From sequence record PX418922.1: 64,000 nt of DNA; one strand, written 5' to 3'. Both the position numbers and the translations under genes were made by a program. A model generated the notes under the pieces. It ran no database searches, was not told the origin of the DNA, and worked only from the letters and a program-made list of their open reading frames with translations. Below, piece by piece: positions 1 to 62,778 of this stretch. Source of the stretch: a phage. Position 1 is the first letter of the stretch, and every line of letters begins with the position of its first letter.

Positions 1-158
1 TCCCCATCATCTACTTTTAAATAAACAATGATTTCACTAAGGTCTAAACCATTTTCGTCAAATGCATTTTCATAGACGAAAGTATCTCCTACATCCAAAT
101 CTTTAATGGTAAGGCATCGTTTATTTACTTTTTGCTCATCAATTTCGAAGTTTAACAC
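1..158 (-). CDS. hypothetical protein, N-terminal part only (gene runs off left edge)
   Basis: Minus-strand frame open from GTG at 158-156 (AGGAGG just upstream) to the window edge; not in ORF track because it is truncated. Confidence 0.3.
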   Translation of the reverse strand, partial: MLNFEIDEQKVNKRCLTIKDLDVGDTFVYENAFDENGLDLSEIIVYLKVDDG

Positions 159-387
159 TTCTTCCTCCTAATGTTATCTCCGGTTTGTATATACGAAGAA
201 TTATAGCATTTTCATTTTCTTTGTCAACCCATTCTTCATAATCAGGCCATACATGAATCTCTACTCTACTTACAATATCTTCCATTCGCACAGTCCCAAT
301 GAAATACTCTTTGAGACTGCGCATAATGAAAGCTTCTCTCTCGCGCCAATAATTTTCTATGACTTGAGAGGCAAGCTCGTCGATCAT
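139..387 (-). CDS. hypothetical protein (82 aa)
   Basis: ORF track; tightly packed with the downstream vWA gene. Confidence 0.4.
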   Translation of the reverse strand: MIDELASQVIENYWREREAFIMRSLKEYFIGTVRMEDIVSRVEIHVWPDYEEWVDKENENAIILRIYKPEITLGGRSVKLRN

Positions 388-1178
388 TTTTTAGCACCTA
401 CTTTAACAACCCACTCTCCGAACTCTTCAGATAAGAGTTTGTCATAAAGCTCTGAATCTGTCAAGTCTAAATCTTTAATGCCAATAAAACCAACATTATC
501 ATAAGCATTTGCCAGTTCTTTCAGGAAGCCAAACTTCTCATTACCAACACCAACCATGAACCAATAAATAGGTTTATTCTTATTCTCTTCGATAAGACGA
601 CGAACAGCACTAGGATCACCATTCTCACCATCCGTCTGGAAGAATACAACACCAGGGGTAATGTCAGCACCTGGTTCAGATACAGCTACAACTTTTTCAC
701 GCTCTACAGACACTGTTTCAGTTTTACCAAGCAGACGATTAAAGAAGCCTTTCTTTGGAGCCTCCTCTTGTACCACTTGTTTAGTGGTAATATATTTAGT
801 AACAGTGCCAAAATACTCATCGTAGATATCCGCCATTACAGGGGCGTAATTTGTTCCACCTCCGATACGAACATTACGCATACATTTACCAACATAGTCA
901 TCGTAAACATCTGCTGTTGCTGGAGTAAGCTCTTGGGAACTCGTATTGAAGGCCCACATATCAATTTGTTGATTATCGTCGAACAGCATACCAAAAGGAA
1001 GCAGTTTACCTACAAAATCACTCACTACCCCATTAGAATATAGACCATGCATACTACCAGAAATATCTAGAGCACATGCTACACGAAGAACAATCTTACC
1101 TTCATTCAGGTTCTTATTCTTTTTCAGAGAGAAAGCAAGGTTTTCTTGACGTTTTTTCAGGCTGATTTTCTCGGACAT
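384..1178 (-). CDS. von Willebrand factor A domain protein (TerY-like)
   Basis: MIDAS motif DISGSM (DxSxS) near N-terminus; 264 aa; 4-nt overlap with neighbour. Confidence 0.6.
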   Translation of the reverse strand: MSEKISLKKRQENLAFSLKKNKNLNEGKIVLRVACALDISGSMHGLYSNGVVSDFVGKLLPFGMLFDDNQQIDMWAFNTSSQELTPATADVYDDYVGKCMRNVRIGGGTNYAPVMADIYDEYFGTVTKYITTKQVVQEEAPKKGFFNRLLGKTETVSVEREKVVAVSEPGADITPGVVFFQTDGENGDPSAVRRLIEENKNKPIYWFMVGVGNEKFGFLKELANAYDNVGFIGIKDLDLTDSELYDKLLSEEFGEWVVKVGAKK

Positions 1179-1179
1179 A

Positions 1180-1458
1180 TTATTTCTCCTTCTTAAGTGT
1201 AATATTGGTAACTTCTAAATCTACTTCCACCATATTTGTATCTGGTGGGATGCAATGAGTATAGCCTCGTTGTGCTAGTGATCCATTAATACAGATCGCA
1301 CTGTTTGTGGAATTTTTAATGAACACCAAGTTACGGTAGGTATCCAACCCTGCGTCTTCATAGGCATCATAATACATGAATGTGGCCCCTACGTCAAGAT
1401 CTTCGAAAGCAATAGGTAAATCCTGACTTTTTTCTTCTTGAATATTGAATCTAAACAC
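1180..1458 (-). CDS. hypothetical protein
   Basis: ORF track frame; start moved to GTG 5 nt after GAGGAGG, overlapping the upstream stop. Confidence 0.45.
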   Translation of the reverse strand: MFRFNIQEEKSQDLPIAFEDLDVGATFMYYDAYEDAGLDTYRNLVFIKNSTNSAICINGSLAQRGYTHCIPPDTNMVEVDLEVTNITLKKEK

Positions 1459-2014
1459 GCATACCTCCTCTACCAATTTTGAAGCCCAAATCGTAAGCTT
1501 CCTTGGTGATCTTTTGTAACTCACTTATAGGAAGTGTTACAAGAGGATCATCTTCTTCAATTTCCATCTTATCATCTTCTGTTTCAATGAGAGTATTATG
1601 CACTTTGTGATAAGGGTTGTCAACACGTTTAAACTTATTCTTTTCTGTGCTGAAAAAACAATCTGGATCTTCTTCGCCATCACCCCAACCTTGGTTAGGA
1701 TCTCCGTCAGATTGTTCTGTAGGGATTTCACCTGTAAAGTACTCTTCCAGCACCATAGCGATACCGTCCCTTGGATTTGAGGAATGCATCAAATCACAAA
1801 CCTTACCCCAATCCATAGCCCATTCGAACCGTTCACGAACGCCGTTTTCATCCTCCTTTCCAGAGAAAACACAACCATAACTATCATAGTTGCCATACAT
1901 CTCTTCAATAACAACACCGTCCTTCAAAAGAAAGAGATAACAAGGTGATCCGTCGAAAGAAGTAGAAAGGGCAGCTTTGCCCGATTCTTTGCACAAAAAG
2001 CTAAAACAACCCAT
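1451..2014 (-). CDS. hypothetical acidic protein (187 aa)
   Basis: ORF track; coding-like composition. Confidence 0.5.
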   Translation of the reverse strand: MGCFSFLCKESGKAALSTSFDGSPCYLFLLKDGVVIEEMYGNYDSYGCVFSGKEDENGVRERFEWAMDWGKVCDLMHSSNPRDGIAMVLEEYFTGEIPTEQSDGDPNQGWGDGEEDPDCFFSTEKNKFKRVDNPYHKVHNTLIETEDDKMEIEEDDPLVTLPISELQKITKEAYDLGFKIGRGGMRV

Positions 2015-2412
2015 TACAAACCCTCCTTCAGATTATCAAGAGCTACAGTGGTTTCACAAAATTCTCCATAAGCTTTATGATGTTCCAGAAAAGCTTCGGG
2101 TCCACCCCAGTCATTATCTTGTGTATTCCAGCCATCAATAAAAGCATCTTCAATGATTGTGATCAGTTCCTGTCGAGTCAACGTAATGGTATCAGGTTTC
2201 TGCGTAGTTTCCACACGGAACCCTGGTTCTTCATAAAAACCTTTAGTTACAATGGATTCTAACTCTTCTGCATCACAGAGGAAGTAGCCACAAAGATAAC
2301 ACCAACCGTCACCATCTTTCATTACTTCATAAACTTCACCACTTGCTAACTTGGTGAAAAGAGTAGGGTCTGTTACTGTAAGTTTTAAAAGAATACCTGT
2401 TGGATTATACAT
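2014..2412 (-). CDS. hypothetical protein (132 aa)
   Basis: ORF track. Confidence 0.5.
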   Translation of the reverse strand: MYNPTGILLKLTVTDPTLFTKLASGEVYEVMKDGDGWCYLCGYFLCDAEELESIVTKGFYEEPGFRVETTQKPDTITLTRQELITIIEDAFIDGWNTQDNDWGGPEAFLEHHKAYGEFCETTVALDNLKEGL

Positions 2413-2578
2413 CTTCTTCCTCCTCTAAAATATGGAACCCGTAATTACAATAATCCTGAAAGGTTTCGTGCGCAAGATCTTCTATATCCTCTTGAGACAT
2501 ATCATCTTCAATTTCGATATCCACAACCTCATTGCATCCACACCAAGCAGTTTCAATATTCACTCGTAATATTTTCAT
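2405..2578 (-). CDS. small hypothetical protein (57 aa)
   Basis: Read manually from reverse complement; ATG overlaps upstream stop (TAATG) and its stop overlaps the next start; below ORF-track size cutoff. Confidence 0.3.
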   Translation of the reverse strand: MKILRVNIETAWCGCNEVVDIEIEDDMSQEDIEDLAHETFQDYCNYGFHILEEEEDV

Positions 2579-2775
2579 TACTCCTCCTCCTCATTGAAGT
2601 CAATATCTGCAAGGAGTTCGAATTTACGGAAGTTACGACAACCTTCATAAATATAACAATCACGACAAACTGCTAGAACACTTGGGGGATATATACCTCC
2701 CATCGGTGCGAATCGTTTTTCGTCATCATAACGGACACCAATGTCTTCATCAATTATATAGATACGGATTCTCAT
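2578..2775 (-). CDS. small Cys-containing hypothetical protein (65 aa)
   Basis: ORF track; translationally coupled to the TelA-like gene. Confidence 0.4.
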   Translation of the reverse strand: MRIRIYIIDEDIGVRYDDEKRFAPMGGIYPPSVLAVCRDCYIYEGCRNFRKFELLADIDFNEEEE

Positions 2776-3884
2776 TTACCAAGCCCTCGTTTCACAGCAG
2801 CTACCATCCCGTCTTCCAGAGATTGAACTTCATTAATATAATCAACACGAGCAGCACGGGCTTCCGTATTGATGCGGTTAGTTTCTTCCAACATCTTAAC
2901 CAAGTTTTCCTGATCGTGACGCAGAGTTTCAATATCCAACACTTGACGGTTAGCCAGTGCTGCTGCTTCGATCTGATTCTGTGTGGCAAGATCGCTACCC
3001 AGTTTAATTGCCAGGTTAAATTCATCAAGAACGTTATTCTGCGTCTCTGCTGCTTTCATTTGACGTAAGCTCTCGATATACATTGAGAAGTTAGCAGAGT
3101 AAGCAGGAATAACATTATTTACTATGTTACGCGCAGATCGCATTAAGCTTGCAGAAACTTTTTGCATACCTTGTACACGCGGTCCCATTTGGACACACAG
3201 TAGGCGCAATGCTTTTAAATCTGCAATACGAATCTCCAGAAGATCCAAAGTATCTCGGATCACTTGTCGCTGTTCTACTGCATCTTCTGGAAGAGCAGCC
3301 AAAGCTTGTTCTTCTTTTTCATAGGTTGTTGTTAGAAGCTGCATATCTCGGTTCAAACTTGCAGCATATTGTCCAATAGCTTGATGTAGCTTTTCAAGAT
3401 ATACCAAAGAATCTTCTTCTTTGCGAATATCCATTTGAAGGTTCTTTACCAACTCTTCAATACGGTTATTAACATTATCAAACTCCCCAAACAGGTCTTC
3501 TTTCATACCCATAACTTTTTTAATGAGTTTAGTAATACCCTTGCTTTGTTTAATAGAGTTTGGATCAAGTTGTTTTGCCTGTTTAATCAAAGCTGTGAGT
3601 CGTTCACTCATCTGATCGCCTTGATTACTACGTTGATGTTTTAATACCTCGGCATTCAAGGAACGCAAGGTTGTTCCTGCCTCTGCCCCAATCTCTTCGA
3701 TCTCTTGTCGGGTCATAGAAGGCAAAACTGGAACTTCTTGCGGTGCGGCTGGTGCATAAACAGGACTGGCATCTAACACGCTTGGAGCGAATACAGATTT
3801 ACTTGCATCTGTTGTTGCAGCAAATACGCTCATTTCAGGCTTCTTCTGACCGCCAGTAGCTGCTTTTAAAAATGGACTTGTCAT
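2772..3884 (-). CDS. TelA-like coiled-coil protein (toxic anion resistance family)
   Basis: 370 aa, long heptad-like coiled-coil character; family assignment by resemblance only. Confidence 0.45.
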   Translation of the reverse strand: MTSPFLKAATGGQKKPEMSVFAATTDASKSVFAPSVLDASPVYAPAAPQEVPVLPSMTRQEIEEIGAEAGTTLRSLNAEVLKHQRSNQGDQMSERLTALIKQAKQLDPNSIKQSKGITKLIKKVMGMKEDLFGEFDNVNNRIEELVKNLQMDIRKEEDSLVYLEKLHQAIGQYAASLNRDMQLLTTTYEKEEQALAALPEDAVEQRQVIRDTLDLLEIRIADLKALRLLCVQMGPRVQGMQKVSASLMRSARNIVNNVIPAYSANFSMYIESLRQMKAAETQNNVLDEFNLAIKLGSDLATQNQIEAAALANRQVLDIETLRHDQENLVKMLEETNRINTEARAARVDYINEVQSLEDGMVAAVKRGLGK

Positions 3885-4471
3885 TCTTCATTCTCCTCTT
3901 CTGCATCTCTTATATATGGTGAAACACCGTACTCTTTAGCTACTTTAACCCAATCGTCCCATTTATACAACCATAATTTTCCTTCGGTCCCTTCTTTATC
4001 TGATTTCAACCACATATTAGGTTGCTTACCCGGGTACATGCGATTAGGTTTACGATTATAACCTCTAACACATCTTGTCGCAAACCTATCTACCAGAACA
4101 AGAACATATTTATACTCGTGGTTCAACGGCTCTTTGGAAGTGGCTTTAGGATTAGCCCCTAATTCTGCTGCCAGTTTTTGCCAATGAGCACCGTGCCTAC
4201 TAAACTTACCCATACAACCATCAATAGCATGAGCAATTTCGTGCTTCATTGTATCCACGATCATATCTCTTGTGGAGTTCTTATGCAAGTGCCAATTTAC
4301 AACAACAATTTTATCTCGGTAGTTGCACCAACCGAAAGAGTTATTCACTTTGTTTCTAACACAAGCTTTATATCCTGCTTCACGTAACATGTTGTAGTAA
4401 ACAGGAAAATCTTCTTTTATTTCCTGCATCACTTCCCACCACAAGAGTTGCAAGTCTCTCTCGGTATGCAT
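3881..4471 (-). CDS. SprT-like zinc metallopeptidase
   Basis: HExxH motif (HEIAHAIDG) in a 196-aa protein. Confidence 0.55.
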   Translation of the reverse strand: MHTERDLQLLWWEVMQEIKEDFPVYYNMLREAGYKACVRNKVNNSFGWCNYRDKIVVVNWHLHKNSTRDMIVDTMKHEIAHAIDGCMGKFSRHGAHWQKLAAELGANPKATSKEPLNHEYKYVLVLVDRFATRCVRGYNRKPNRMYPGKQPNMWLKSDKEGTEGKLWLYKWDDWVKVAKEYGVSPYIRDAEEENEE

Positions 4472-4474
4472 AAC

Positions 4475-5068
4475 TTACACCTTAAAAGCGAAATGCGTGG
4501 TCGTGGCTTCAAAATCAGGGCCAGATAAACTTGCACTGAAATCTGAAATATTTGTAATTAAAAAGCTTTTATGCATACCTAACACAGCCACGCTTTCAAT
4601 ATCTTCTACTAACATTTCAATCATGTTAGAAACATGGCTGAACGTATAGTTTTGTTTTTTGATGGTGTAGAAAGAAAGACTCCCACCTGCTGTATAAGAT
4701 ACCTCTTCAAAATCTTTAATCGTATATTGTGTGCCATCAGTAAAGAAAATGGTAGCTTTATTAGTAGCACGTTTCTTGTTTTTTGGTCCTTTTTTACGTT
4801 TACTGCGAGTAGGCAAACCGTTTGGGAACACCATAGCTACAAATTCTTCAGCAGAAACCTCCTTACCGAAATCATAACCATAAGAAACAGCGTCTATAAA
4901 CTCGTCATCTTCATTTTTAAAATAATGGAAATAGGGCCGATTTGAAAGATTATCAAGCATCTTATGCTCGTCCACAGCAGAGAATGTATCCCTCAAAGCG
5001 CGTGTGATTTGCAAAGCATTAGGCAACCTTTTAACACCTACGATGGAAGTACGAATAGAAATTGTCAT
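4475..5068 (-). CDS. hypothetical protein (197 aa)
   Basis: ORF track. Confidence 0.5.
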   Translation of the reverse strand: MTISIRTSIVGVKRLPNALQITRALRDTFSAVDEHKMLDNLSNRPYFHYFKNEDDEFIDAVSYGYDFGKEVSAEEFVAMVFPNGLPTRSKRKKGPKNKKRATNKATIFFTDGTQYTIKDFEEVSYTAGGSLSFYTIKKQNYTFSHVSNMIEMLVEDIESVAVLGMHKSFLITNISDFSASLSGPDFEATTTHFAFKV

Positions 5069-5082
5069 TGTTTTTCTCCTTA

Positions 5083-5520
5083 TTAACGCCGCTTGCTACG
5101 AGATGAACTCTTTTTACTTAAAGGGCTATTGTAAGATTTACGAGTTGTATAGCTACTATTTGTTTTAAAAGTTTGTCTCGGCTTTTCATAAGTTTTTATC
5201 TCTTGTTTAGGCTTACCATAAAAATTAGTTTTCGGTTTAGGTGTATTATAATGCTTATTAATAATCGTTCTGTTATCGTTATAATCCCCACTGCTACGAT
5301 TACTACCACCACTCATCATATGCCCTAACAACATACCTGTAGCAAACTCACTAACACCGCTACTACTAGAACCGCCACCATTGTTGATAATAGTTGTATC
5401 TCCGTCAGATCCTTGTTGAGCGTATTGTTGAGGAGGTTGTTGGTATTGTGCAGGATTTGTTTCATCCTCGCAAGCTGTTAAAAAGATACAACCAATTAAA
5501 ATCAGGGCTAGTTTTTTCAT
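5083..5520 (-). CDS. putative lipoprotein, Gly/Ser-rich
   Basis: Start moved to internal ATG (MKKLALILIGCIFLTAC) with GAGGAAAG upstream; signal peptide plus lipobox LTAC. Confidence 0.5.
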   Translation of the reverse strand: MKKLALILIGCIFLTACEDETNPAQYQQPPQQYAQQGSDGDTTIINNGGGSSSSGVSEFATGMLLGHMMSGGSNRSSGDYNDNRTIINKHYNTPKPKTNFYGKPKQEIKTYEKPRQTFKTNSSYTTRKSYNSPLSKKSSSRSKRR

Positions 5521-5707
5521 ATTTGCTTTCCTCGTTTTGGCTATTAATACATCTGTGTTTGAAATCTCCAGAGAAGCAATAAAGTTGCTCTCCATCTCGG
5601 TATAAACTCACTTTACTGCCGTTGATTACGCTTGTCAATACAAAAATTACAACAAACAACCCTATTGCAAAACAGATATTTTCAAACACAACCAACAAGT
5701 ATTTCAT
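5462..5707 (-). CDS. small membrane protein (81 aa)
   Basis: ORF track; hydrophobic N-terminus; ATGA overlap with upstream gene; 3' end overlaps lipoprotein gene. Confidence 0.35.
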   Translation of the reverse strand: MKYLLVVFENICFAIGLFVVIFVLTSVINGSKVSLYRDGEQLYCFSGDFKHRCINSQNEESKYEKTSPDFNWLYLFNSLRG

Positions 5708-6054
5708 TTTAAAAACACCTCATCATCAGTCTCATTATCCCAGAAGAACAAATCCCAACCATTTGGATCATTCCATTTGGCTGCTGGAGAAGTCCATATT
5801 TGCTCAATATCAATATTCAAAACTTCACCGTTTCGTTTTGAAACAGCTTTAGTTAATTCCCAACGAGATACAGGCTCTACTTCTCCTGAACCACTTCCAC
5901 AACAAGCTACAACATTAGGAGGCAAATTAATTGGATCTTTGGTCACAATCATAACGCTTACCCCAGGGTAAACTTTTGAAAGATAATCTAAAACGTAATC
6001 CACATCACCAGATAAATCCCAAACAAGTTCTTGAATTTCATCAAAATTATTCAT
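5704..6054 (-). CDS. hypothetical protein (116 aa)
   Basis: ORF track. Confidence 0.5.
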   Translation of the reverse strand: MNNFDEIQELVWDLSGDVDYVLDYLSKVYPGVSVMIVTKDPINLPPNVVACCGSGSGEVEPVSRWELTKAVSKRNGEVLNIDIEQIWTSPAAKWNDPNGWDLFFWDNETDDEVFLK

Positions 6055-6067
6055 AAGTCTCTCCTAT

Positions 6068-6090
6068 AAAATAGCCTCCCGAAGGAGGCT
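6068..6090 (-). terminator. putative intrinsic terminator after TerC gene
   Basis: Minus-strand hairpin GAGCCTCC-TTCG-GGAGGCT followed by ATTTTAT. Confidence 0.35.
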
Positions 6091-6096
6091 CATCTA

Positions 6097-7071
6097 TTAA
6101 ACAGCAGCTTCTTCTTTTTCAGGGAAGATAAAGCTTGCAATAACACCAAGAGCTAATGTGCCTAGAACAATCATCAGACTTACGTTAGGGGAAATATCAT
6201 GCGGGAGGAATGACCACTTGGCATGAAGTGTTTCACCGAACGGGTGATACATAAGTTTAGCACCGACAAATACCAGAACCACAGCAACAGCTTTCTCTAA
6301 GTGAACCAGATATTTCACAGCTACACTTAACACAAAGAAAAGTGCACGTAAACCAAGAACAGCCATCAGCATTGCAGAATAAACTAGCAGAGGTTCTTGT
6401 GTCACACCGATCACAGCCGGAACTGAATCAAAAGAGAAGACAATATCTGTAAGCTCAATAACAAACACACAAAGAAGAGCAGGAGTTGCATATTTAATAC
6501 CATTCTTAATGGTGATGAACTTTTCACCATCCAGTGCATTGTGCACAGGCAGAACTTTACCTACTAAACGAACAGCCCAATGCTTAGAGTAATCAATATC
6601 CTCTTCTTCGTCACCACCTTTGATGATAGCCACGGCAGACCAAGCTACAATCAAACCGAACAACACTTGGACCGACCAATGAAGGTTAAACAAAGCGGTC
6701 CCTGCTGCAACAAAAATACCTCGGAAGACAATGGCTCCTGCAATTCCCCAAAGTAAAATCTTATGTTGGAGATGTGTGCTCTTAATTCCAAAGCTTGCAA
6801 AAATTGCCATGAACACCATCAGGTTATCTACAGAAAGACTCTTTTCCAACACATAGCCACTTAGGAAAAGCGCGGCAAACTCTTTACCATGTTCTACCCA
6901 AATGAATGCGTAATATCCTAAAGCTAAAGCAATCCAAAAAACAGACCAAAGCAAAGCAGATTTAATTCCAATTTCTTTATTCTCTTTATGACCAAAGAAA
7001 TCAATACCAATAGACAATGCTAAAATACCAACTAAAACAACTACATCAATAATGGGGAAACCAAGTTGCAT
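6097..7071 (-). CDS. TerC-family integral membrane protein
   Basis: Multi-pass hydrophobic protein with the two TerC-type motifs EKSLSVDN and FSFDSVPAVIG. Confidence 0.65.
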   Translation of the reverse strand: MQLGFPIIDVVVLVGILALSIGIDFFGHKENKEIGIKSALLWSVFWIALALGYYAFIWVEHGKEFAALFLSGYVLEKSLSVDNLMVFMAIFASFGIKSTHLQHKILLWGIAGAIVFRGIFVAAGTALFNLHWSVQVLFGLIVAWSAVAIIKGGDEEEDIDYSKHWAVRLVGKVLPVHNALDGEKFITIKNGIKYATPALLCVFVIELTDIVFSFDSVPAVIGVTQEPLLVYSAMLMAVLGLRALFFVLSVAVKYLVHLEKAVAVVLVFVGAKLMYHPFGETLHAKWSFLPHDISPNVSLMIVLGTLALGVIASFIFPEKEEAAV

Positions 7072-7084
7072 TATTTTCTCCTTT

Positions 7085-7143
7085 CTCTTTGCGGGGAACC
7101 ACTCCCCGCCTCATGTGATACATCTTACTCTATTCTAAAACTT
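7085..7143 (-). promoter_or_regulatory. sigma70-like promoter plus 5' leader hairpin driving TerC gene
   Basis: Minus strand reads TTGACA-N16-TAAGAT-GTATCAC-AT-GAGGCGGGGAGTGGTTCCCCGC; same architecture as the island promoters. Confidence 0.5.
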
Positions 7144-7152
7144 TGTCAACAC

Positions 7153-7374
7153 TTATTTTGAAGAACTTGAGGAAAAGATCCCACGTAGTACAGCCATGAT
7201 AAATGCCACACACACCACAGTCCAGAAGGTGACAGGAACAGTGATATCTGTGTGACCCATCATTTCAACAACGTAGTTATAAGCCAGCAGCAGAAGCCAT
7301 GCTGGAATCATACTAATCAGAAAAGCAATAACAAACACAATAATCACTGCAAGAATACCTGCTAAAACGCCCAT
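7153..7374 (-). CDS. small membrane protein (73 aa)
   Basis: ORF track; two hydrophobic segments. Confidence 0.45.
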   Translation of the reverse strand: MGVLAGILAVIIVFVIAFLISMIPAWLLLLAYNYVVEMMGHTDITVPVTFWTVVCVAFIMAVLRGIFSSSSSK

Positions 7375-7387
7375 AATATTTCTCCTC

Positions 7388-7861
7388 TTAAAGTTTATAA
7401 ATAGTCACATCGTGACCTGTTTTTACTAAAGTTTCTTCAATCATCACTTCAATGATAGCCCAATTACCTCCTGCCAACCCTGCTCCAATCATAGGTAAGC
7501 CGATCTTACATTTTTGGTCACGGAGAAGCAAATCATTAGCCATAGCTATTAGTGCATCGTACAAGGCATCATAGTCCAACTGACGACCTTTAGCATTGTA
7601 TCCATAACGATACTGCCCGTATAGATTATATACCAAAGGATCTGATTGTTCGTCTGGCACCCCTAAACTAAAACAACCTAGTTTACTTTGATCACCAGCC
7701 ATTGTGTCTAAATCTGCCGCATATGCATAAGGGAATGCTCGTTTAATTTGCGGAGCAATTCCTGCTCCCATATTACACATACAATTGCAACAATGAGCAA
7801 TAACAGTTACTTCACCTGCTTTAGCGGCATCGATAAGATTACCTGTTTTCATTTTAAGCAT
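7388..7861 (-). CDS. macro domain protein (ADP-ribose binding / processing)
   Basis: Macro-like motifs TVIAHCCNCMCNMGAGIAPQI and GLPMIGAGLAGG; start moved to ATG after GGAG. Confidence 0.55.
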   Translation of the reverse strand: MLKMKTGNLIDAAKAGEVTVIAHCCNCMCNMGAGIAPQIKRAFPYAYAADLDTMAGDQSKLGCFSLGVPDEQSDPLVYNLYGQYRYGYNAKGRQLDYDALYDALIAMANDLLLRDQKCKIGLPMIGAGLAGGNWAIIEVMIEETLVKTGHDVTIYKL

Positions 7862-7874
7862 TTTTAGCTCCTTA

Positions 7875-8702
7875 TTACAGAATGTGTTGTTTTGTGTAAC
7901 GATCCAAGAATTCAAAGTTTTCAGCATACTTTGAAATTCGGTTGTAACCTTCTCCCAAACATCCGAAGAAAAGTTGCTCTACATAGTAGTGTGGCAATTG
8001 GCTAAGAATGATTTTGAAGTCTTCGTGATTTTGGCCCATAAGATACTTAATAGGACGAACAAGACACTGTGCATCACGTTCTTCATTAATCATTTTAACA
8101 AAAGCTTCTGGTGTATTAATATAATTAAAATTCAGTTTAGCTTCGGTATCTGCTTGATTACCTTCATATTTTGCAAAATACAGGAAGTAAACATCATTTT
8201 TAACTTGATTTTCATCAAGGATCTCAATCAGTTTGTCTTCGTGCGTTCCAGTGATATTTACATCATCAATGAATACAAGCTTCTTATCACCCCAGAATTC
8301 TTTGTTGCAGTAGAATGTATCCCCATCAATAAGTTTCTTACGACTAGCTTTATCCAAGAAGCCATAATCATTAATATAGCTAACTTTACGATGAATAATA
8401 TCCAGTTCTGCTGAACGACCTTGATCATATTGTGCTTGCAACATATTAAAGTAATTAATAAAATGATCTGTCATCATTGTGGCAGCATTATGCACATGGT
8501 TGTAAGGAGAAGGAATGATAACAAATTGTTCCCCAATATGTTTCATTGCCACTTGAGCAAAAAACTGAAGTGCCAATTCTTTACCCATACGACGCGCGGC
8601 TTGGTTACTACCAAATTTCAATTTTGAATAATCTTGGATATCAAAAGTAGCAGTTTCCAGGTCATCAAATTTATTTGCAAAAATTTGAGTTTGATTACGC
8701 AT
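7875..8702 (-). CDS. phosphoribosyltransferase-fold protein
   Basis: PRPP-binding-type motif KLVFIDDVNITGTHE; 275 aa. Confidence 0.5.
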   Translation of the reverse strand: MRNQTQIFANKFDDLETATFDIQDYSKLKFGSNQAARRMGKELALQFFAQVAMKHIGEQFVIIPSPYNHVHNAATMMTDHFINYFNMLQAQYDQGRSAELDIIHRKVSYINDYGFLDKASRKKLIDGDTFYCNKEFWGDKKLVFIDDVNITGTHEDKLIEILDENQVKNDVYFLYFAKYEGNQADTEAKLNFNYINTPEAFVKMINEERDAQCLVRPIKYLMGQNHEDFKIILSQLPHYYVEQLFFGCLGEGYNRISKYAENFEFLDRYTKQHIL

Positions 8703-9351
8703 TTACAATTTCTCCTCTTTTAAGTTTCTCTAGTAAGTCGTTAGGGTTCTTAATATGACAGAAGTTAAATCCTAAGTCAACACATTTTCCATCATATTCT
8801 TCACTATCGCCTACGTGCAATACTTCGTGCCCTAACAGAGGGATCGGAGAATACGTGAGCGTGCGAGCAAAGAATCGCGGATCTGGTTTACAAAGTAAAG
8901 CTTCATCCGAGAAATGGGTGAACTCAAAACAATTCCAACTATCAAACTTACAAGCACGACGCAGGATATCCCCTGATATAAAGTTGGTATTGCTCTTAAT
9001 ACTCAAATCATAACGTCCCGAAAGATACAGCAAGTACATCGGCAGATCCACGGCTACGTGTGGTGGAAACTTAAGGAACCACTGTTCACACTCGAAACGA
9101 AGCTTTGCAGACTTCCAAGGTGTTATCCCAAGTTCAGAACCAAGTTTTTCCCAAGCGTATGCTGCACACTCGGCTTTGCCTTGAAGTGCTGCATTATCCA
9201 GTTCCTTTTTGATCTTCTTATAAGCTGCTCTTGCTTCCACTTCCGTAATATCTCCATATTTTGCGATAGTCCAGGCTCGCATGTCTGCGTAATTGGAGTT
9301 TGCTGTGATCAGTGTGTTCCATACATCAAAAGAGATATGTTTAATAGTCAT
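8695..9351 (-). CDS. HAD-like hydrolase (divergent motif I)
   Basis: N-terminal FDVWNTL and later HVGDS resemble HAD motifs; second Asp of motif I is absent. Confidence 0.4.
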   Translation of the reverse strand: MTIKHISFDVWNTLITANSNYADMRAWTIAKYGDITEVEARAAYKKIKKELDNAALQGKAECAAYAWEKLGSELGITPWKSAKLRFECEQWFLKFPPHVAVDLPMYLLYLSGRYDLSIKSNTNFISGDILRRACKFDSWNCFEFTHFSDEALLCKPDPRFFARTLTYSPIPLLGHEVLHVGDSEEYDGKCVDLGFNFCHIKNPNDLLEKLKRGEIVNA

Positions 9352-9352
9352 A

Positions 9353-9958
9353 TTAAGCCCACCATGCGTCTAAGTTAAGATTACTGTCCACTACCACTTG
9401 TTCTATGTGGTAGCCTTTTATCTGTATCCCACTGTTCAAGAGCATATCATACGCTTCATTGAAACGCAACTTATCTTCTGCGGAATATAAGCGAGCATTA
9501 TAAAATCGGTAATCAATTTCTTCAGCATTAGAAGAAATACGGAAGAAGTTTGTTTCTACTTCGGGATCACTTGCTGAAGTCTTAATGTGAACTTCTCCGT
9601 AATTTTCTTTACTTAGATCCATGAAAAGAACACAGGCAACATGTTTAAACATTCGTTCCAGTTTGTAACGAACAACATTGAAACCTGCATTCTCAAGTTT
9701 TTCTACACACTGCAACATTAAAGTAGTGTCGAGATCGCTTTGATACTTTGTTAACATACGATCACGTTGAGACTTTGTATCCCGATGTAAATCAATTGTT
9801 GTGCATTTGGCACCAATAATCTTAGCTGCTTTCATCAACTCTTCAGAACTAACGTTAGATAAAGTAAGATGAAAATGGGCTTTCCACACTTTTTTAGCAG
9901 GGACACCAAAAGATTTATCCCCACTATTCGGCATGCTGACTACTACACTATGTTGCAT
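9353..9958 (-). CDS. 2H phosphoesterase-like protein (LigT / cyclic phosphodiesterase family)
   Basis: Two HxT/S motifs: HFHLTL and VHIKTS. Confidence 0.45.
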   Translation of the reverse strand: MQHSVVVSMPNSGDKSFGVPAKKVWKAHFHLTLSNVSSEELMKAAKIIGAKCTTIDLHRDTKSQRDRMLTKYQSDLDTTLMLQCVEKLENAGFNVVRYKLERMFKHVACVLFMDLSKENYGEVHIKTSASDPEVETNFFRISSNAEEIDYRFYNARLYSAEDKLRFNEAYDMLLNSGIQIKGYHIEQVVVDSNLNLDAWWA

Positions 9959-9973
9959 TACTTATCTCCTCAC

Positions 9974-10165
9974 TTAAAATGGAAGTCTTTGAAGTTCATC
10001 TCCTCCGATATCAAGTAATTTAGCAACATCTCGATCAGAAAGCAACTCTTTTCTTTGTAAAATATCCACAAGGGTTGCAAGAATGTCCTTAACGTCCCGA
10101 TCACTGTTCTTCAAAAGTTCTCCTGCCGTCCCTACTCTATCTCCTACAGCAAAATATGTAACCAT
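9974..10165 (-). CDS. small hypothetical protein
   Basis: ORF track frame; start moved to ATG 7 nt after AGGAGG, removing overlap with nrdG. Confidence 0.35.
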   Translation of the reverse strand: MVTYFAVGDRVGTAGELLKNSDRDVKDILATLVDILQRKELLSDRDVAKLLDIGGDELQRLPF

Positions 10166-10178
10166 GAAACCTCCTAAG

Positions 10179-10649
10179 TTAATCTGATTGCCAACCACTT
10201 GCCGTTTTGGTCCATAATCTTTGATTATCTGACCCTCTGAAAGGTTTTGTAGTTGGATTGTTTATTTCATACTTTCCGTCTACAATAATGTCAACAATAT
10301 TTTTAATATACAAAGGCACTTCCTCAAAAGTATATCCTGTATACACCATTATATCTTTGCTTGACCCATAAACATCTCTAACCTTTTCTATAAGGTTTTT
10401 AACATTGTAAATATTCTGCGGATCTAATGGCTCTCCTCCTAAAATTGTTAAACCTTTTACAAACGGTCTTGACAAATCTTTTAAAACTTGCTCTACATTT
10501 TCGTGAGTAAACGGTTTCCCATAAGAATAAGACCAGGCTTTTTGGTTAAAACAGCCACGACAACCGTGGCTACAACCACTAACCCAGAGGGAGCACCTAA
10601 CTCCCTCACCATTAATAAGATCTACAGGTTCGTATCCTGCAAAATTCAA
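10179..10649 (-). CDS. nrdG: anaerobic ribonucleotide reductase activating protein
   Basis: Radical-SAM Cys cluster GCSHGCRGC; 4-nt overlap with nrdD. Confidence 0.75.
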   Translation of the reverse strand: MNFAGYEPVDLINGEGVRCSLWVSGCSHGCRGCFNQKAWSYSYGKPFTHENVEQVLKDLSRPFVKGLTILGGEPLDPQNIYNVKNLIEKVRDVYGSSKDIMVYTGYTFEEVPLYIKNIVDIIVDGKYEINNPTTKPFRGSDNQRLWTKTASGWQSD

Positions 10650-12460
10650 AAATGTTTCTCCCTTTGCAAAACTTCCTGCATTTTACCTTTGTTATAAGGC
10701 CGTGAATTAGGGGCAGAAAGATACCCTGATACACGTCTAACTACAGAAATAGTTTCTTCTTCATGGTTGCCACAATCAGGACACTCAAACCCTTTAGCCG
10801 TTGCCTTAAATTCCCCATGAAAACCACACTTAAAGCATTGATCCACGGGCTGATTAATACCAAAATAGTGAATATGTTCATAAGCGTAGTCTACTAAAGT
10901 CTCCAAAGCTTCTAAGTTATTCTTTAAGTTTGGTGTTTCGACATAACTTATGTTACCACCATTACTAATCTGTGCAAAACCTGCTTCATAATCCCATTTT
11001 TCAAAAGGATTTGTTACCAACCATACAGGTTGATGAAAAGAGTTAGTAAGATAGTCTCTTTCTACCAAACCTGGGTATTTTTCATTTAAAGCTGTTGCAA
11101 ACTTATAGCACAAAGATTCTGCTGGAGTTCCATAGAGACTAAACGCCAGCTTAGATCGTTCTTTAAACACAGCACACACATCTTTCATATGTTGCAGAAT
11201 GCTTTTACCAAGTTCCTTTTTATCTTTTTCTTCTGGATAAAGGATTTCCAAAGCTTCGGCAAGACCTACATAACCAATACTAATAGAAGCATAACCACCT
11301 TCAAACAAAACACCAATTTCATCATTGGCATTTAAACGCGCTAAAGCCCCTTCCATGAAAAGAATAGGGTTTTCAGATGCTTTGGTATGTCTGATACGGT
11401 TTACACGTAGCATGTGAGCATCGTAGGCTATCTCCATATGTTTATTAAGAAGATCGGTGAAAGATTCTCCTTTACTTCTCGCTTCCGCAGCGATCAGAGG
11501 TAAGTTGATAGAAACTACTCCAAGGTTGAATCGTCCATCGTATTTTTCTCCTTGTTCGGTGGCATAGTACGACAAAAAGGAACGACAACCCATACTCGTA
11601 ACAGTACCATCTGCTGATCCCGTAACTTCTTTGTTCAAAGGAACAGAAATAAAATCTGGATAAATACGATCAGCACAACATGCCAAAGCTTGTTGCTTAA
11701 GGTCATAGTTAGGATCACTAGGTTTCATGTTAACACCTTCTTGTAAAAAGAAAATAACTTTAGGGAATACAGGTGTTACATGATCTTTGCCTAGACCGTT
11801 ACTATGCACTTTAAGATAGTTAGCTGTGATCATTCTGCCAAAAACAGAGGTATCCAGACCCATACTGATTGTAATAAAAGGAGATTGTCCATTAACACTC
11901 ATTAAAGTATTAACCTGATACAAGAGAGTTTGCATAGCATCGTATACATCTTGTTCGGTCATTTCTAGGGCTTCTTTCCTTGCATAACAACCGTAGCGAC
12001 GTTTGGTTATCTCCATGTTTTTAAGGAAACTAGCTTCAACATAAGGACTAAGACCTTTATCAATGTGCGCACACGTCTGACCTCCATACTGACTGGAGGC
12101 AACAGCTTGGATGATTTGAGTTAGCACTGTGGTAGCTACTCCAATAGATTTTGGTTTTTCTATCTGTGCAGCACCGATCTTAAAACCATTTTCTAACATA
12201 TCTTGATAATTAACAAGACAACAGTTTGTAAGAGGAGAGAGCAGATAATCCAAGTCGTGAATATGTCCAAAACCTTCTGTATGCCATTCTGACAAGTTTT
12301 TTGGCAGTATCTGTGTCATTGCCATATGTTTGCTTAAAATCCCAGCCAAGAGATCCCTATGCGTGTTAACGAGGTGGGAAGGTTTGTTTGCATTCTCTCT
12401 AGTGTATGTTTCTGAAGTACGATCTAAAAAAGAAAAAACATCTTGGTACAAATCTTTCAT
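10646..12460 (-). CDS. nrdD: class III anaerobic ribonucleoside-triphosphate reductase
   Basis: 604 aa; C-terminal zinc ribbon (CFKCG...CPDCG) and glycine-radical motif RVSGYLS. Confidence 0.85.
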   Translation of the reverse strand: MKDLYQDVFSFLDRTSETYTRENANKPSHLVNTHRDLLAGILSKHMAMTQILPKNLSEWHTEGFGHIHDLDYLLSPLTNCCLVNYQDMLENGFKIGAAQIEKPKSIGVATTVLTQIIQAVASSQYGGQTCAHIDKGLSPYVEASFLKNMEITKRRYGCYARKEALEMTEQDVYDAMQTLLYQVNTLMSVNGQSPFITISMGLDTSVFGRMITANYLKVHSNGLGKDHVTPVFPKVIFFLQEGVNMKPSDPNYDLKQQALACCADRIYPDFISVPLNKEVTGSADGTVTSMGCRSFLSYYATEQGEKYDGRFNLGVVSINLPLIAAEARSKGESFTDLLNKHMEIAYDAHMLRVNRIRHTKASENPILFMEGALARLNANDEIGVLFEGGYASISIGYVGLAEALEILYPEEKDKKELGKSILQHMKDVCAVFKERSKLAFSLYGTPAESLCYKFATALNEKYPGLVERDYLTNSFHQPVWLVTNPFEKWDYEAGFAQISNGGNISYVETPNLKNNLEALETLVDYAYEHIHYFGINQPVDQCFKCGFHGEFKATAKGFECPDCGNHEEETISVVRRVSGYLSAPNSRPYNKGKMQEVLQREKHF

Positions 12461-26781: not shown

Positions 26782-26970
26782 ATGGCACGTTTAGCAGATA
26801 ACCCTGTATTCTACCCCGTTCTTGATCTTTATGATGAATTGACATATGTTGTGGAGCGGTATAATTACAATGAAGACCTCTTGGAGACAAACCTTAAAGT
26901 AGTTCTGATGAAAGCCTATCAGCAAGGGCAACGTGAAATTTTGGAGAGTATGAAAAATGCGAATAACTGA
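26782..26970 (+). CDS. small hypothetical protein
   Basis: Start moved to ATG after AAAGGAG. Confidence 0.45.
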   Translation: MARLADNPVFYPVLDLYDELTYVVERYNYNEDLLETNLKVVLMKAYQQGQREILESMKNANN

Positions 26971-27499
26971 TGATTATGTATTCTTCTTTTCACATAAAGA
27001 TGTTTTTAGTAATTGGTATATTGCACCCTTTACAGAAACCGAACCAGGTTACAATCAGACATTTAATTGTGTCGAACAATACATGATGTGGCGTAAAGCT
27101 TTGCTTTTTAATGACCACAACACTGCACAGGCTATTCTGACTCATAGTTTGATACGGAAAGATGAGAAGATCCAAGCTTATTACAAACGTATGGGTAAGG
27201 CAGTGTCGGATTTTGATAACAACGTATGGGAAGAGAACCGTGAGCGTATTGTTATGCGAGGTTTATGCTTGAAATATGTACAGAATCCAGATTTGTATGC
27301 AGACTTACACCTTTACCAATACAAAACGTTTGTTGAAGCAAGCCCCTACGATAAGGTTTACGGAATTGGAATGGGGATGTATGAACCAGGGGTGCTAAAC
27401 CCTGCCACCTGGAAAGGGCAGAATCTTTTAGGTAAATATCATAATAAACTGATCGAAATACTTTTCCCAGACAAAATACCGCAAAGACGATATTTGTGA
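26957..27499 (+). CDS. NADAR (YbiA-like) domain protein
   Basis: FFFSHKDVFSNWY near N-terminus and YGIGMGMYEPG near C-terminus resemble the NADAR/DUF1768 fold. Confidence 0.5.
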   Translation: MRITDDYVFFFSHKDVFSNWYIAPFTETEPGYNQTFNCVEQYMMWRKALLFNDHNTAQAILTHSLIRKDEKIQAYYKRMGKAVSDFDNNVWEENRERIVMRGLCLKYVQNPDLYADLHLYQYKTFVEASPYDKVYGIGMGMYEPGVLNPATWKGQNLLGKYHNKLIEILFPDKIPQRRYL

Positions 27500-56351: not shown

Positions 56352-57152
56352 TTATTTGTTTAAGTGGTCTTCGACCATTTTAATAAAACCTTCATTGCTG
56401 AAGGCTGTTGCAGCTTTTTCTCGGTAAACAAAAACTCCACGATCTTCATAGAGAAGTGTTTCTTCGTAATTAACTTCAGGGTTAACTACAACCATTTTTG
56501 TCCCGATGTTAAGAGCAGGAAAAAGCTCCCAGTTAAAATTGATAACTTGATTAGAGCAACCCACTACAATCACCATATCTTGAGCCGTCAAGCCGTCTAA
56601 GATGTGGTACATATCGTTATACAATGGGGCAGTCTCCCCAAAGAACACTACATTAGGCTTCACATACTTGTAATCATCTACATCGATAGCAGCATAGCCA
56701 ACATCTTTGATGATTCTATTGTCTACGATCACTTCAGGCAGGAAGCCGTGAACATGTAGAACATCTTCATGAACAACACCCGCTTGTTCCAGAAGATCAT
56801 CTACGTTTGTCGTGATGTTGATAACACGATCACAGCCGTACTCTTGAAACCATTCCGCGATCTGGTAATGCGCAGCGTTAGGAGTTACACTATCCATCTC
56901 TACGCGACGTTTATTGTAGAAGTCATGAGTTTTACGGTAGAGGTTGTATCCCTCTGCATCTAATCCGCCAACAGCCCCAGGAACACACTGTTCTTGTTGG
57001 TATCCAGCACGGAAGTTGAAAATGTCACACACTTCAGAAAGGTCGTATTCATCCCACAAAGCTTTCCCACTATCTGTATCAGTGCGGAAAGTACGTACAC
57101 CGCTATCGGCGCTTAAGCCAGCGCCGCTGATCACTATTAATCGTCTTGGCAT
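56352..57152 (-). CDS. Sir2-family NAD-dependent protein (sirtuin-like)
   Basis: NAD-binding motif GAGLSADSGVRTFR and VLHVHG (catalytic His region); no obvious zinc-ribbon Cys pairs. Confidence 0.6.
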   Translation of the reverse strand: MPRRLIVISGAGLSADSGVRTFRTDTDSGKALWDEYDLSEVCDIFNFRAGYQQEQCVPGAVGGLDAEGYNLYRKTHDFYNKRRVEMDSVTPNAAHYQIAEWFQEYGCDRVINITTNVDDLLEQAGVVHEDVLHVHGFLPEVIVDNRIIKDVGYAAIDVDDYKYVKPNVVFFGETAPLYNDMYHILDGLTAQDMVIVVGCSNQVINFNWELFPALNIGTKMVVVNPEVNYEETLLYEDRGVFVYREKAATAFSNEGFIKMVEDHLNK

Positions 57153-57649
57153 TCTTCCTCCTCATAATCATCATAATCTTCATCATCCAAATCGTACACT
57201 TCGTCTTGAGAATAACTCACTTCAAAGTAAATATCAAACTCTGCAAACAAACGTAGAATGTTGGACATGCTGTAATAGTTATCATAAGCTTCCTCTGCTT
57301 CATAGTAGAGGCGTAGCAAACGTTCAGCTTCTTCGTCTTCTACCCATTTATGATCAACATAAACAGAAGCGGCATAAATATTGTAGGCTTGTTCTCGACT
57401 ATCAGCAAGATTTCGGCTTAACAGTTCAGGGAAGTCTTTACCATTTACATTTAGTCTTCCGCATAACCACAAAGCAATATCATGCCAATCTGCATCCTCT
57501 CCGCTGAAGCAGCTTGCGACTTCGCCAAACTTGGCATCCCCTAAGTCTCCGCTAATAGTGATCATGGTTGAACTATTGTAACCACAAGTTTCGCAATTTG
57601 AACAACTGTTGTGCACATGAATTTCTACTTGAAACATATTTCCTCCCAT
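57137..57649 (-). CDS. highly acidic hypothetical protein (170 aa)
   Basis: C-terminus DLDDEDYDDYEEEECQDD; Asp/Glu-rich throughout. Confidence 0.5.
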   Translation of the reverse strand: MGGNMFQVEIHVHNSCSNCETCGYNSSTMITISGDLGDAKFGEVASCFSGEDADWHDIALWLCGRLNVNGKDFPELLSRNLADSREQAYNIYAASVYVDHKWVEDEEAERLLRLYYEAEEAYDNYYSMSNILRLFAEFDIYFEVSYSQDEVYDLDDEDYDDYEEEECQDD

Positions 57650-57680
57650 AAAAGAAAAGCCCCCTGAAACAGGAGGCTTT
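57650..57680 (-). terminator. putative intrinsic terminator
   Basis: Minus-strand AGCCTCCTG-TTTC-AGGGGGCT (one G-U) then TTTTCTTTT. Confidence 0.4.
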
Positions 57681-57695
57681 GTTCAGATTCTGACA

Positions 57696-58346
57696 CTATA
57701 CCAGACTTTGTAGGTATTTGTCAAGGGCTTCTTGATCACCTTGACAAACATAGCAACGGAAGTCTTGAGCCGAAGGTTGTTTATTCTCATCCCAGTCCCA
57801 CATTATATTACCTTTGTAACGTGAACCAGGGAAGTCGAAAAATGCTGTATGGGTGATGTGGTGTGGACCGCCCCAAACCTCTGTAAAGGTGAACTGCGGA
57901 TACGCTACCTTCACCGCCTCCATAAACCAAGCTTTACGAATCAAAGCATTGTTGATAAAATGCGCGTGACGTTCCATTTCTTCCCAGTTCTTCCACACGC
58001 TTTTCTCGTCAAGGGAAAATACAAGATCCTCTTCAATATACAAGCCATCTTCGCATTCGTCAAAATCTGCCTCAAGACCTCCTACAGGTTCGTCGAGTCT
58101 AACACCATCAAAAGCAGAATATACCCACCAACCATCTTCCAGTAAGGCTTTGATAGGGACGAAGCCTTTATCAGCATATTGATCGAATTGTTTCACACGG
58201 TGGCTTGTGCAGTCTTCAAACTCACATTCTAAACGATATGCACCTTTTCGACGAGCCTCAAGACCGTGTGTACTGAAAATAACAACACTTCCTTCACCAT
58301 CATTACGATCTACTTGATAAGCAACTACTGGTTTTGAATTTGACAT
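57696..58346 (-). CDS. hypothetical protein (216 aa)
   Basis: ORF track. Confidence 0.5.
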   Translation of the reverse strand: MSNSKPVVAYQVDRNDGEGSVVIFSTHGLEARRKGAYRLECEFEDCTSHRVKQFDQYADKGFVPIKALLEDGWWVYSAFDGVRLDEPVGGLEADFDECEDGLYIEEDLVFSLDEKSVWKNWEEMERHAHFINNALIRKAWFMEAVKVAYPQFTFTEVWGGPHHITHTAFFDFPGSRYKGNIMWDWDENKQPSAQDFRCYVCQGDQEALDKYLQSLV

Positions 58347-60360: not shown

Positions 60361-60420
60361 AATATTTCTCCTCTATTGGTTGATAGGTTAAGTTTATCAA
60401 GCTTCCAGATTCCTGTCAAT

Positions 60421-60445
60421 AAAAAACCCGCCGAAGCGGGTTATT
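60421..60445 (-). terminator. intrinsic terminator
   Basis: Minus-strand CCCGC-TTCG-GCGGG then TTTTTT. Confidence 0.6.
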
Positions 60446-60450
60446 ATTTA

Positions 60451-60723: not shown

Positions 60724-60732
60724 AATCTCTCC

Positions 60733-62771: not shown

Positions 62772-62778
62772 AATCACC

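Follow-up and report, generated by a model that had tools for sequence, protein, structure and literature searches.

A HAD hydrolase-PRTase_3 gene pair among Ter genes of a phAPEC8-like phage, with a macro-domain gene and ORF4 beside it: a probable mosaic of three functional units

What the ter locus does, and what the nucleoside-like metabolite predicted for it does, is a decades-old question. In published comparative genomics, the Ter (tellurite-resistance-type) system of stress and phage resistance consists of TerD, TerC, TelA and vWA proteins together with a module of a nucleobase phosphoribosyltransferase (PRTase) and a HAD phosphoesterase, which is predicted to yield a nucleoside or nucleotide derivative (Iyer et al. 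2021, PMC7824862; summarized in PMC8115787). The nucleoside-metabolite module is credited to Anantharaman, Iyer and Aravind (2012), to the extent that their work is related in the papers summarizing it (PMC7824862, PMC8115787). Ter genes also occur in jumbo phages and in some related smaller tailed phages, where the versions are abbreviated too and a role against superinfecting phages has been proposed (PMC7824862). In this study, we analyzed a stretch of 64,000 nucleotides of phage sequence record PX418922.1 (hereafter the window), in which four adjoining genes at positions 7388-9958 encode a macro-domain protein (Macro), a PRTase, a HAD-superfamily hydrolase and a protein that we refer to as ORF4.

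Two further groups of phage proteins are relevant to this locus. Phage NAD+ reconstitution pairs a Nampt-like enzyme (PF18127/PF04095) with one of the Prs family (PF14572), or relies on Nampt and Nmnat, and an extended form, NARP1-AP, carries a Poa1p-like macro-domain phosphatase (Adpp) in Adps-Namat operons. In phage T4, the NADAR protein 30.3/AdfN counters DarTG1, and tk.4, now renamed adfM, is needed for growth on hosts with DarTG2, where its product probably acts by removing ADP-ribose from DNA (bioRxiv 10.1101/2025.11.20.689424).

Judged by sequence identity, the window is part of a Phapecoctavirus genome (Stephanstirmvirinae; lytic coliphages of ~150 kb resembling phAPEC8), because positions 6000-10300 share 99.0% identity with Escherichia phage vB_Ec-G1 and 98.7% with phAPEC8, and 71 phage records span at least 80% of this interval. 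A sequence-only reading of the window had described the four genes as a cluster of ADP-ribose and nucleotide-metabolism enzymes. The four adjoining open reading frames (ORFs) are indeed present on the minus strand, at 7388-7927, 7875-8702, 8695-9351 and 9353-9958, and since all four have many homologues, they can be taken as real genes and not chance ORFs. In the order in which they are read on that strand, they are as follows (RBS, ribosome-binding site):

9353..9958, minus strand: ORF4, 201 aa, of a large, mostly phage-borne protein family
8695..9351, minus strand: HAD-superfamily hydrolase, 218 aa, directly upstream of the PRTase
7875..8702, minus strand: type-I PRTase of family PF15610 (PRTase_3, "ComF-like"), 275 aa
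7388..7861, minus strand: macro-domain protein, 157 aa from an RBS-backed start; the open frame reaches 7927 (179-aa ORF)

The genes are tightly spaced, with a 1-nt gap between ORF4 and the HAD gene, an 8-nt overlap between the HAD and PRTase genes, and a 13-nt gap between the PRTase gene and the Macro ATG at 7861; no terminator-like sites were seen between them on the coding (minus) strand. The shorter length of Macro, 157 aa, is the probable one, because an AAGGAG RBS precedes the ATG at 7861 and the same start is annotated for phAPEC8 gp050. The block lies beside the nucleotide-metabolism genes NrdD/NrdG, in the ribonucleotide-reductase region. We favor, with moderate confidence, the view that it is a mosaic of three functional units and not a single ADP-ribose pathway: (i) a Ter-linked HAD-PRTase_3 pair, (ii) an AdfM-type macro domain, and (iii) ORF4. 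The components are members of known or earlier predicted kinds.

The HAD-PRTase_3 pair and its Ter surroundings

The PRTase-fold label given to the product of 7875-8702 was borne out by Pfam, where family PF15610 matched residues 11-266 of 275 with 143.9 bits against a cutoff of 28.7 (E 7.7e-42); no relative was found in NCBIfam or among PDB sequences. The loop that binds phosphoribosyl pyrophosphate (PRPP), DDxxITGTHE, is intact, and D146, D147, I150, T151, G152, T153, H154 and E155 are invariant in 41 sequences. The AF2/AlphaFold model has a predicted local distance difference test score (pLDDT) of 92.3, and its best Foldseek match is HGXPRT/HGPRT (E 1e-6, template-modeling score [TM] ~0.4), followed by Helicobacter pylori ComF (7p0h) and PyrR, which would place the modeled fold closest to the 6-oxopurine PRTases and ComF. 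A C-terminal helical extension of ~90 residues is specific to the family and had no match in Foldseek.

With hypoxanthine-guanine(-xanthine) PRTases as the nearest solved folds, and the gene located in the ribonucleotide-reductase region, the enzyme might be thought to serve plain purine salvage, boosting nucleotides for phage DNA synthesis, with neighbors that are unrelated to it. We regard this as very improbable for several reasons: (i) no HGPRT-family sequence match was obtained in Pfam, NCBIfam or PDB sequences; (ii) the structural similarity reaches a TM of ~0.4 only, and the 90-residue extension belongs to this family; (iii) the obligate HAD partner described below would undo salvage; and (iv) the host already has salvage enzymes.

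The HAD label given to the product of 8695-9351 also holds, albeit for an atypical member, with PF00702 reaching 21.3 bits, under the cutoff of 26.4, and phrog_14393 matching at 2e-117; further matches are TIGR02252 (2e-8) and PDB entry 2om6 (8e-5). In the alignment of PRTase-linked homologues (A7), residues D9, W11, N12, T13, S120, N121, K155, G181, D182 and D187 are invariant. Canonical HAD phosphatases have the motif I DxDxT, in which the Asp at position +2 is the general acid. In all PRTase-linked homologues, motif I reads D-x-W-N-T, with the nucleophile Asp retained, the Asp at +2 replaced by Trp11, and motifs II to IV intact. Because the general acid is replaced by Trp, the name "phosphatase" is not assured for this protein, and, going by the alignment, its general-acid catalysis may differ from that of the canonical enzymes. 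The sole PDB relative, 2om6, has the same D-x-W-N-T motif I.

In 23/23 viral or metagenomic loci and 15/15 loci of species-representative genomes (38/38 together), the gene immediately upstream of the PRTase encodes the HAD protein; the two genes form an obligate pair and are probably translationally coupled. Family assignment, gene linkage and conservation of catalytic motifs are all direct observations, in this pair and in the rest of the locus. What surrounds the pair in the window is a set of Ter genes, listed here with the features that accompany them:

7153..7374, minus strand: small hydrophobic (two-transmembrane-like) protein, 73 aa, between Macro and TerC; phrog_16065, 5e-42
7149-7122, minus strand: sigma-70-like promoter upstream of TerC, TTGACA-16-TAAGAT, 10/12 consensus matches, called on the consensus match alone
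6097..7071, minus strand: TerC/Alx integral membrane protein, 324 aa; PF03741, 3e-40; TIGR03718, 319 bits against a cutoff of 246
6090-6073, minus strand: strong terminator-like hairpin after TerC
3881..4471, minus strand: SprT-like metalloprotease-domain protein; PF10263, 4e-9; overlaps the TelA start
2772..3884, minus strand: TelA (toxic anion resistance) homologue, 370 aa; PF05816, 4e-33
384..1178, minus strand: vWA protein of the TerF C-terminal type, 264 aa; PF10138, 1e-37

TerC, TelA and vWA-TerF share the strand of the four genes and lie within 7.5 kb. All three came up when the window was searched with the neighbors of PRTase homologues from independent phage contigs. In phmmer, the window TelA gave 7e-25 with the TelA of locus L001 and 3e-30 with that of L003, and the window vWA protein gave 1e-35 to 6e-42 with TerF-like proteins from L001, L003 and L006. 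A TerD homologue lies ~130-730 bp beyond the left edge of the window, as seen in vB_Ec-G1 (92451-93053; 952-1554 of locus L033), where an endolysin gene comes next, and it matched the TerD of L003 at 2e-25 (phmmer). In the independent phage contigs, the genes stand in a fixed order: TelA, vWA-TerF, intervening genes, TerC, small gene, HAD, PRTase_3 and TerD. The layout in phi92, of a sister genus, is HAD, PRTase, Macro, TerC, TelA, vWA and TerD, without ORF4, and there too a small gene stands between Macro and TerC. Ter genes occur within 10 kb of the pair in 14 of the 23 viral loci and in 2 metagenome-assembled genomes (MAGs) of Bacteroidetes. They are the only recurrent neighbors of the pair that we saw, and they recur across very divergent PRTase lineages (31-50% identity).

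The likeness of this cluster to bacterial Ter systems lies in a PF15610 PRTase and a HAD protein encoded on one strand with TerC, TelA, vWA-TerF and TerD. It differs from them in being carried by a lytic 150-kb coliphage and in having the extra, lineage-specific Macro, ORF4 and SprT-like genes. Fuller bacterial versions contain, in addition, ATP-grasp amidoligase, TIM-barrel lyase, TerB and TerY-kinase/phosphatase components, none of which was seen among the window proteins scanned.

A possible course of events follows from the published Ter model. The HAD-PRTase_3 pair would be the small-molecule arm of a phage Ter cluster that continues downstream with TerC/Alx, the SprT-like protein, TelA, vWA-TerF and TerD. 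The PRTase would join a base, probably a purine-like one, to PRPP, giving a ribonucleoside 5'-monophosphate, from which the HAD protein would then remove the phosphate to release a nucleoside-like metabolite; the latter would act with the membrane-associated TerD, TerC, TelA and vWA proteins. For a lytic phage, the most plausible use would be the exclusion of competitor phages, or a conditioning of the host envelope and metal balance. Substrates, product and biological role, for this pair and its neighbors alike, are what we infer. The question of the ter locus could become testable in an E. coli phage that forms plaques and has its Ter genes in a compact cluster: the HAD-PRTase core comprises just two genes and is strictly conserved, the phage is easy to manipulate genetically, and a K-12 host is at hand. 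Which compound the Ter pair produces is one of the questions that the locus poses.

Several points weigh against this interpretation or against the mosaic view as a whole: (i) the Asp+2 that serves canonical HAD phosphatases as general acid is missing from the HAD protein; (ii) ATP-grasp, TIM-barrel lyase and TerB were absent from the Pfam scan of the 17 cluster proteins; (iii) the metabolite proposed for PF15610 enzymes and the Ter module comes from comparative genomics alone, and we found no experimental work on the Ter PRTase/HAD module in the literature; (iv) the role in the phage, whether exclusion or envelope conditioning, is speculation; (v) the adjacency of PRTase and Macro is kept in two genera, Phapecoctavirus and Justusliebigvirus, which could mean functional coupling, although we have discounted it; and (vi) no Ter genes were detectable within 10 kb of the pair in 9/23 viral and 12/14 cellular loci, and therefore the pair can work without Ter proteins.

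The last of these points leads to another explanation, according to which HAD-PRTase is a self-contained nucleotide-pool or anti-defense module, making an antimetabolite or decoy nucleoside, or degrading a host nucleotide or immune signal, and its adjacency to Ter genes is the shared synteny of an accessory island. The pair is Ter-free in XaC1, in Rhizobium phages, in several metagenomic phages and in Rhizobiaceae genomes, and in the window it stands beside NrdD/NrdG. Deazapurine nucleoside antibiotics, moreover, are made on the same principle of a PRTase plus a phosphatase, with ToyH/ToyI of toyocamycin as an example, which we count in favor of this explanation. On the other hand, Ter genes are the sole recurrent neighbors, both across PRTase lineages of 31-50% identity and in the Bacteroidetes MAGs, and no other conserved partner emerged. 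We consider a self-contained module unlikely, and retain the Ter-linked pair as the better account.

Some observations on the pair and on the Ter genes stand apart from this argument. Loci L039-L050, from Sinorhizobium, Ensifer and Rhizobium (including plasmid pRL10 of R. johnstonii 3841), carry the HAD-PRTase_3 pair at 38-41% identity without Ter genes; the neighborhood of the pair in Sinorhizobium, with housekeeping genes and a ClpP-like gene, is uninformative, and in L041 a ClpP-like protease gene comes after the pair. The putative promoter at 7149-7122 coincides with one annotated in phAPEC8 and, with the hairpin at 6090-6073, flanks TerC. A riboswitch before the Alx-like TerC was considered and rejected, since the leader is just ~50 nt and an Rfam scan of window positions 1-12000 gave no match at E<=1, upstream of TerC or elsewhere; no tRNA genes were found in the window. 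We found no paper that links phAPEC8 with TerC. The SprT-like gene, which is no described Ter component, occupies the same position in the Phapecoctavirus-like loci L018 and L019. The vWA-TerF gene bears the public label "RNA-binding protein" in vB_Ec-G1 (EcG1_138), and locus L006 has a TROVE/vWA (Ro60-like) gene after its PRTase gene; the similarity between vWA and TROVE probably explains the label.

The macro-domain protein and the NAD/ADP-ribose reading

The macro-domain label holds at 23.9 bits against a Pfam cutoff of 22 (PF01661), and the protein matches phrog_335 at 2e-56. Among PDB sequences it finds SCO6735 (9e-14), BT1257, human TARG1/OARD1 (8e-7) and DarG (3.5e-6), with a weak match to yeast Poa1p, an ADP-ribose (ADPR)-1''-phosphate phosphatase (4e-4), and its macro part is matched by the DarG models of NCBIfam and PADLOC. 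With T4 Tk.4 it shares 37% identity over 124 aa (BLASTP, E 2e-21). Sequence comparison places Macro in the T4 Tk.4/AdfM family, within the TARG1/DarG/SCO6735 branch. Lys62 (counted along the 179-aa ORF that opens at 7927), in the segment "QIKRAF", is aligned with the leading Lys of "FKKKF" in TARG1, which we take to be the catalytic Lys; where the TARG1 "GLD" segment has Asp, Macro has Ala.

By analogy with the T4 protein, Macro would most likely strip ADP-ribose from DNA modified by DarT-type toxins. The two proteins have in common the PHROG-level family, the DarG/TARG1-like signature of the macro fold and a Lys at the position aligned with TARG1. They differ in that their identity is just 37% and in that the window gene adjoins a PRTase gene, whereas the T4 gene does not; protection from DarTG2 has been demonstrated for the T4 protein only, and the role of Macro is assigned by homology. 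In the loci examined, Macro directly follows the PRTase in Stephanstirmvirinae-like loci only, and its family is found in 2,950 phage records, compared with 157 for the PRTase. Because the Macro family spans ~2,950 phage genomes, the adjacency is lineage-specific and Macro is an independent, widespread phage gene. An independent Tk.4/AdfM-type macrodomain would, on this account, have been inserted into the Ter cluster in this phage subfamily.

The sequence-only reading had counted the four proteins, with a NADAR and a Sir2-like protein encoded elsewhere in the window, as six NAD/ADP-ribose-handling proteins that could reverse ADP-ribosylation, clear signals or rebuild NAD+. For the block itself, handling of ADP-ribose or NAD stood for Macro, as a homologue of T4 Tk.4/AdfM, and for no other member: the PRTase and HAD proteins point elsewhere by their profiles and their linkage to Ter genes, and the 2H assignment of ORF4 is unsupported (see below). 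The distant NADAR (26957-27499; PF08719, 2e-35) and Sir2 (56352-57152; PF02146, 6e-20) proteins are present as proposed. For the reasons just given, however, grouping the six under one theme reads too much into them, and Macro, NADAR and Sir2 are all widespread phage genes with independent distributions.

It can still be asked whether the block serves the salvage of NAD+ and ADPR or the clearing of a signal, after the fashion of NARP1-AP, with Macro dephosphorylating ADPR-1''-phosphate or releasing ADPR, the PRTase rebuilding the nicotinamide nucleotide, and HAD and ORF4 trimming phosphates. Such a scheme has a precedent in Adpp, the macro-domain phosphatase inside Adps-Namat operons, and it could draw on the weak match of Macro to Poa1p, on the PRTase-Macro adjacency kept in both genera, on the Nudix gene that follows the HAD-PRTase pair in Rhizobium phage TM21B, and on the NADAR and Sir2 genes elsewhere in the window. 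The locus resembles NARP1-AP and NARP2 in that an accessory region of a phage encodes a macro domain and, next to it, an enzyme of the PRTase fold, and in the general logic of PRPP and ribose-phosphate chemistry.

The profiles and the linkage of the genes speak against it. Profile search, which had been named as the check on this idea, assigned the PRTase and HAD proteins to families other than those of NAD reconstitution and found the pair embedded in Ter clusters. The PRTase belongs to PF15610 and has no profile similarity to PF14572 (Adps), even at E<=1, nor to PF04095 or PF18127 (Namat/NadV); a match to Namat (PF18127 with PF04095) was found in none of the four proteins. The fold neighbors of the PRTase are purine PRTases, ComF and PyrR, with neither Prs nor Nampt in the Foldseek top 50, and the annotation of ~100 kb of vB_Ec-G1, a phage near-identical to that of the window, lists no gene for Nampt, Nmnat or Prs (positions 1-50 kb and 91.5-141 kb inspected, out of 151 kb). 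Moreover, the pair stands among Ter genes in most lineages, where Macro is absent, and Macro is nearer to Tk.4, TARG1 and DarG than to Poa1p and does not appear to be of the Poa1p type. We consequently hold an NAD+/ADPR salvage or signal-clearing function of the block to be distinctly unlikely. A PRTase encoded beside a macro domain need not mean an NAD+ reconstitution pathway.

ORF4 and its family

The fourth gene had been called a 2H phosphoesterase, a label that found no match by profile, PDB-sequence or fold search. ORF4 matched nothing in Pfam, NCBIfam or PDB sequences, also when its profile was used, and neither profiles nor folds linked it to LigT, CPDase, AKAP18 or Acb1, with hhalign giving an alignment to an Acb1 a probability of 0.1%. 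Its conserved motifs are HxT, RxKxE, YxExHxK, SxN and FxNxR, with a D..WW C-terminus, and the model (pLDDT 83) is divided into two ferredoxin-like halves, with a total of eight strands and four helices. ORF4 resembles the 2H phosphoesterases (LigT/ThpR, CPDase, Acb1) in its size, in an H-x-T on a beta strand and in a second His strand ~94 residues further on. It differs in that the conserved first motif, H30-x-T32, is on the first strand and that the second reads H124-x-K126 in every member, not H-x-T/S. The earlier call probably came from H30-x-T32 plus H124.

The family is large, with 995 relatives at E<=0.001 in a profile search of 1.84 billion cluster representatives; the names recovered in a cluster look-up were uninformative. 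Some relatives are fusions, with an N-terminal NUDIX domain in three that were checked and RelA/SpoT-type HD_4, Ham1/ITPase or HTH_3 domains in others. These fusions would point to nucleotide (pyro)phosphate chemistry, and the residues that are invariant across the wide family (R97, K99, E101, Y120, E122, H124, S142, R156, E186, D191 and D197) suit an enzyme that might act on phosphorylated nucleotides. All the contexts of relatives that we inspected are those of phage nucleotide metabolism: beside Acb1 and near ribonucleotide reductase, beside dCMP deaminase and guanylate kinase, and near ThyX. Among the loci examined, ORF4 is upstream of the HAD-PRTase pair in Phapecoctavirus-like loci only. 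A search of 100,044 species genomes (alignment A6) gave 47 pattern matches, none of which was confirmed, and the family appears essentially viral or metagenomic. Locus L011, from an unrelated 110-kb metagenomic phage, has an Acb1 gene (anti-CBASS, PF23474) directly after the ORF4 homologue (7001-8021) and a NADAR gene 4 kb further (11545-11976), an arrangement which suggests that the ORF4 family travels with anti-defense genes.

ORF4 also matches two full-length PADLOC models named "AbiEi", PDLC02277 and PDLC02279, at 5e-13, and so do all 29 relatives tried (best E 6e-63). This likeness to AbiEi antitoxins is set against several differences: (i) the Pfam AbiEi families do not match ORF4, and no AbiEi was found among the PDB sequence matches; (ii) an N-terminal winged-helix domain was not seen in the model; and (iii) neither the window nor six further contexts, those of ORF4 relatives, have an annotated AbiEii/DUF1814-type nucleotidyltransferase partner. 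The PADLOC label can be explained in two ways, as a database artefact or as the mark of unrecognized antitoxins or antitoxin mimics. ORF4 draws attention to a phage family in which fusions to nucleotide enzymes occur and which bears the puzzling label "AbiEi" in a defense-annotation database in wide use, and the role of this family is the other question that the locus poses.

Taken together, the locus also admits a bolder joint reading, in which (i) a lytic coliphage has captured a bacterial Ter defense or stress system, the nucleoside of its HAD-PRTase_3 pair working with TerC, TelA, TerD and vWA to exclude phages or remodel the host envelope, and (ii) the ORF4 family is a new nucleotide-processing enzyme, or an antitoxin mimic directed against nucleotidyltransferase-type abortive-infection toxins. 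We put this combination forward only tentatively and think it rather unlikely to hold in all its parts.

Further genes of the window

The NADAR protein (26957-27499, plus strand; PF08719, 2e-35) also matches phrog_1017. Its relatives are found in 719 phage records, mostly of Staphylococcus, Listeria and Stephanstirmvirinae-type phages. A close relationship to T4 30.3/AdfN was considered and rejected, with no T4-type phage among the 30 matches listed; by sequence, the two would be kin at the superfamily level only.

The Sir2 protein (PF02146, 6e-20; phrog_2162) lies within a minus-strand run at 56352-63830 that holds three other annotated genes:

58346-59071, minus strand: DNA-methyltransferase-like protein
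62190-62795, minus strand: "DprA-like" protein
63087-63830, minus strand: calcineurin-like phosphoesterase

The "DprA-like" protein may be a SLOG-type domain, and a published analysis ties the sirtuins of related rV5-like phages to RNA-end repair. Between 28000 and 40000, on the plus strand, there is a long run of very small ORFs separated by spacers of ~80-100 nt, much as early genes interspersed with repeated regulatory spacers would look.

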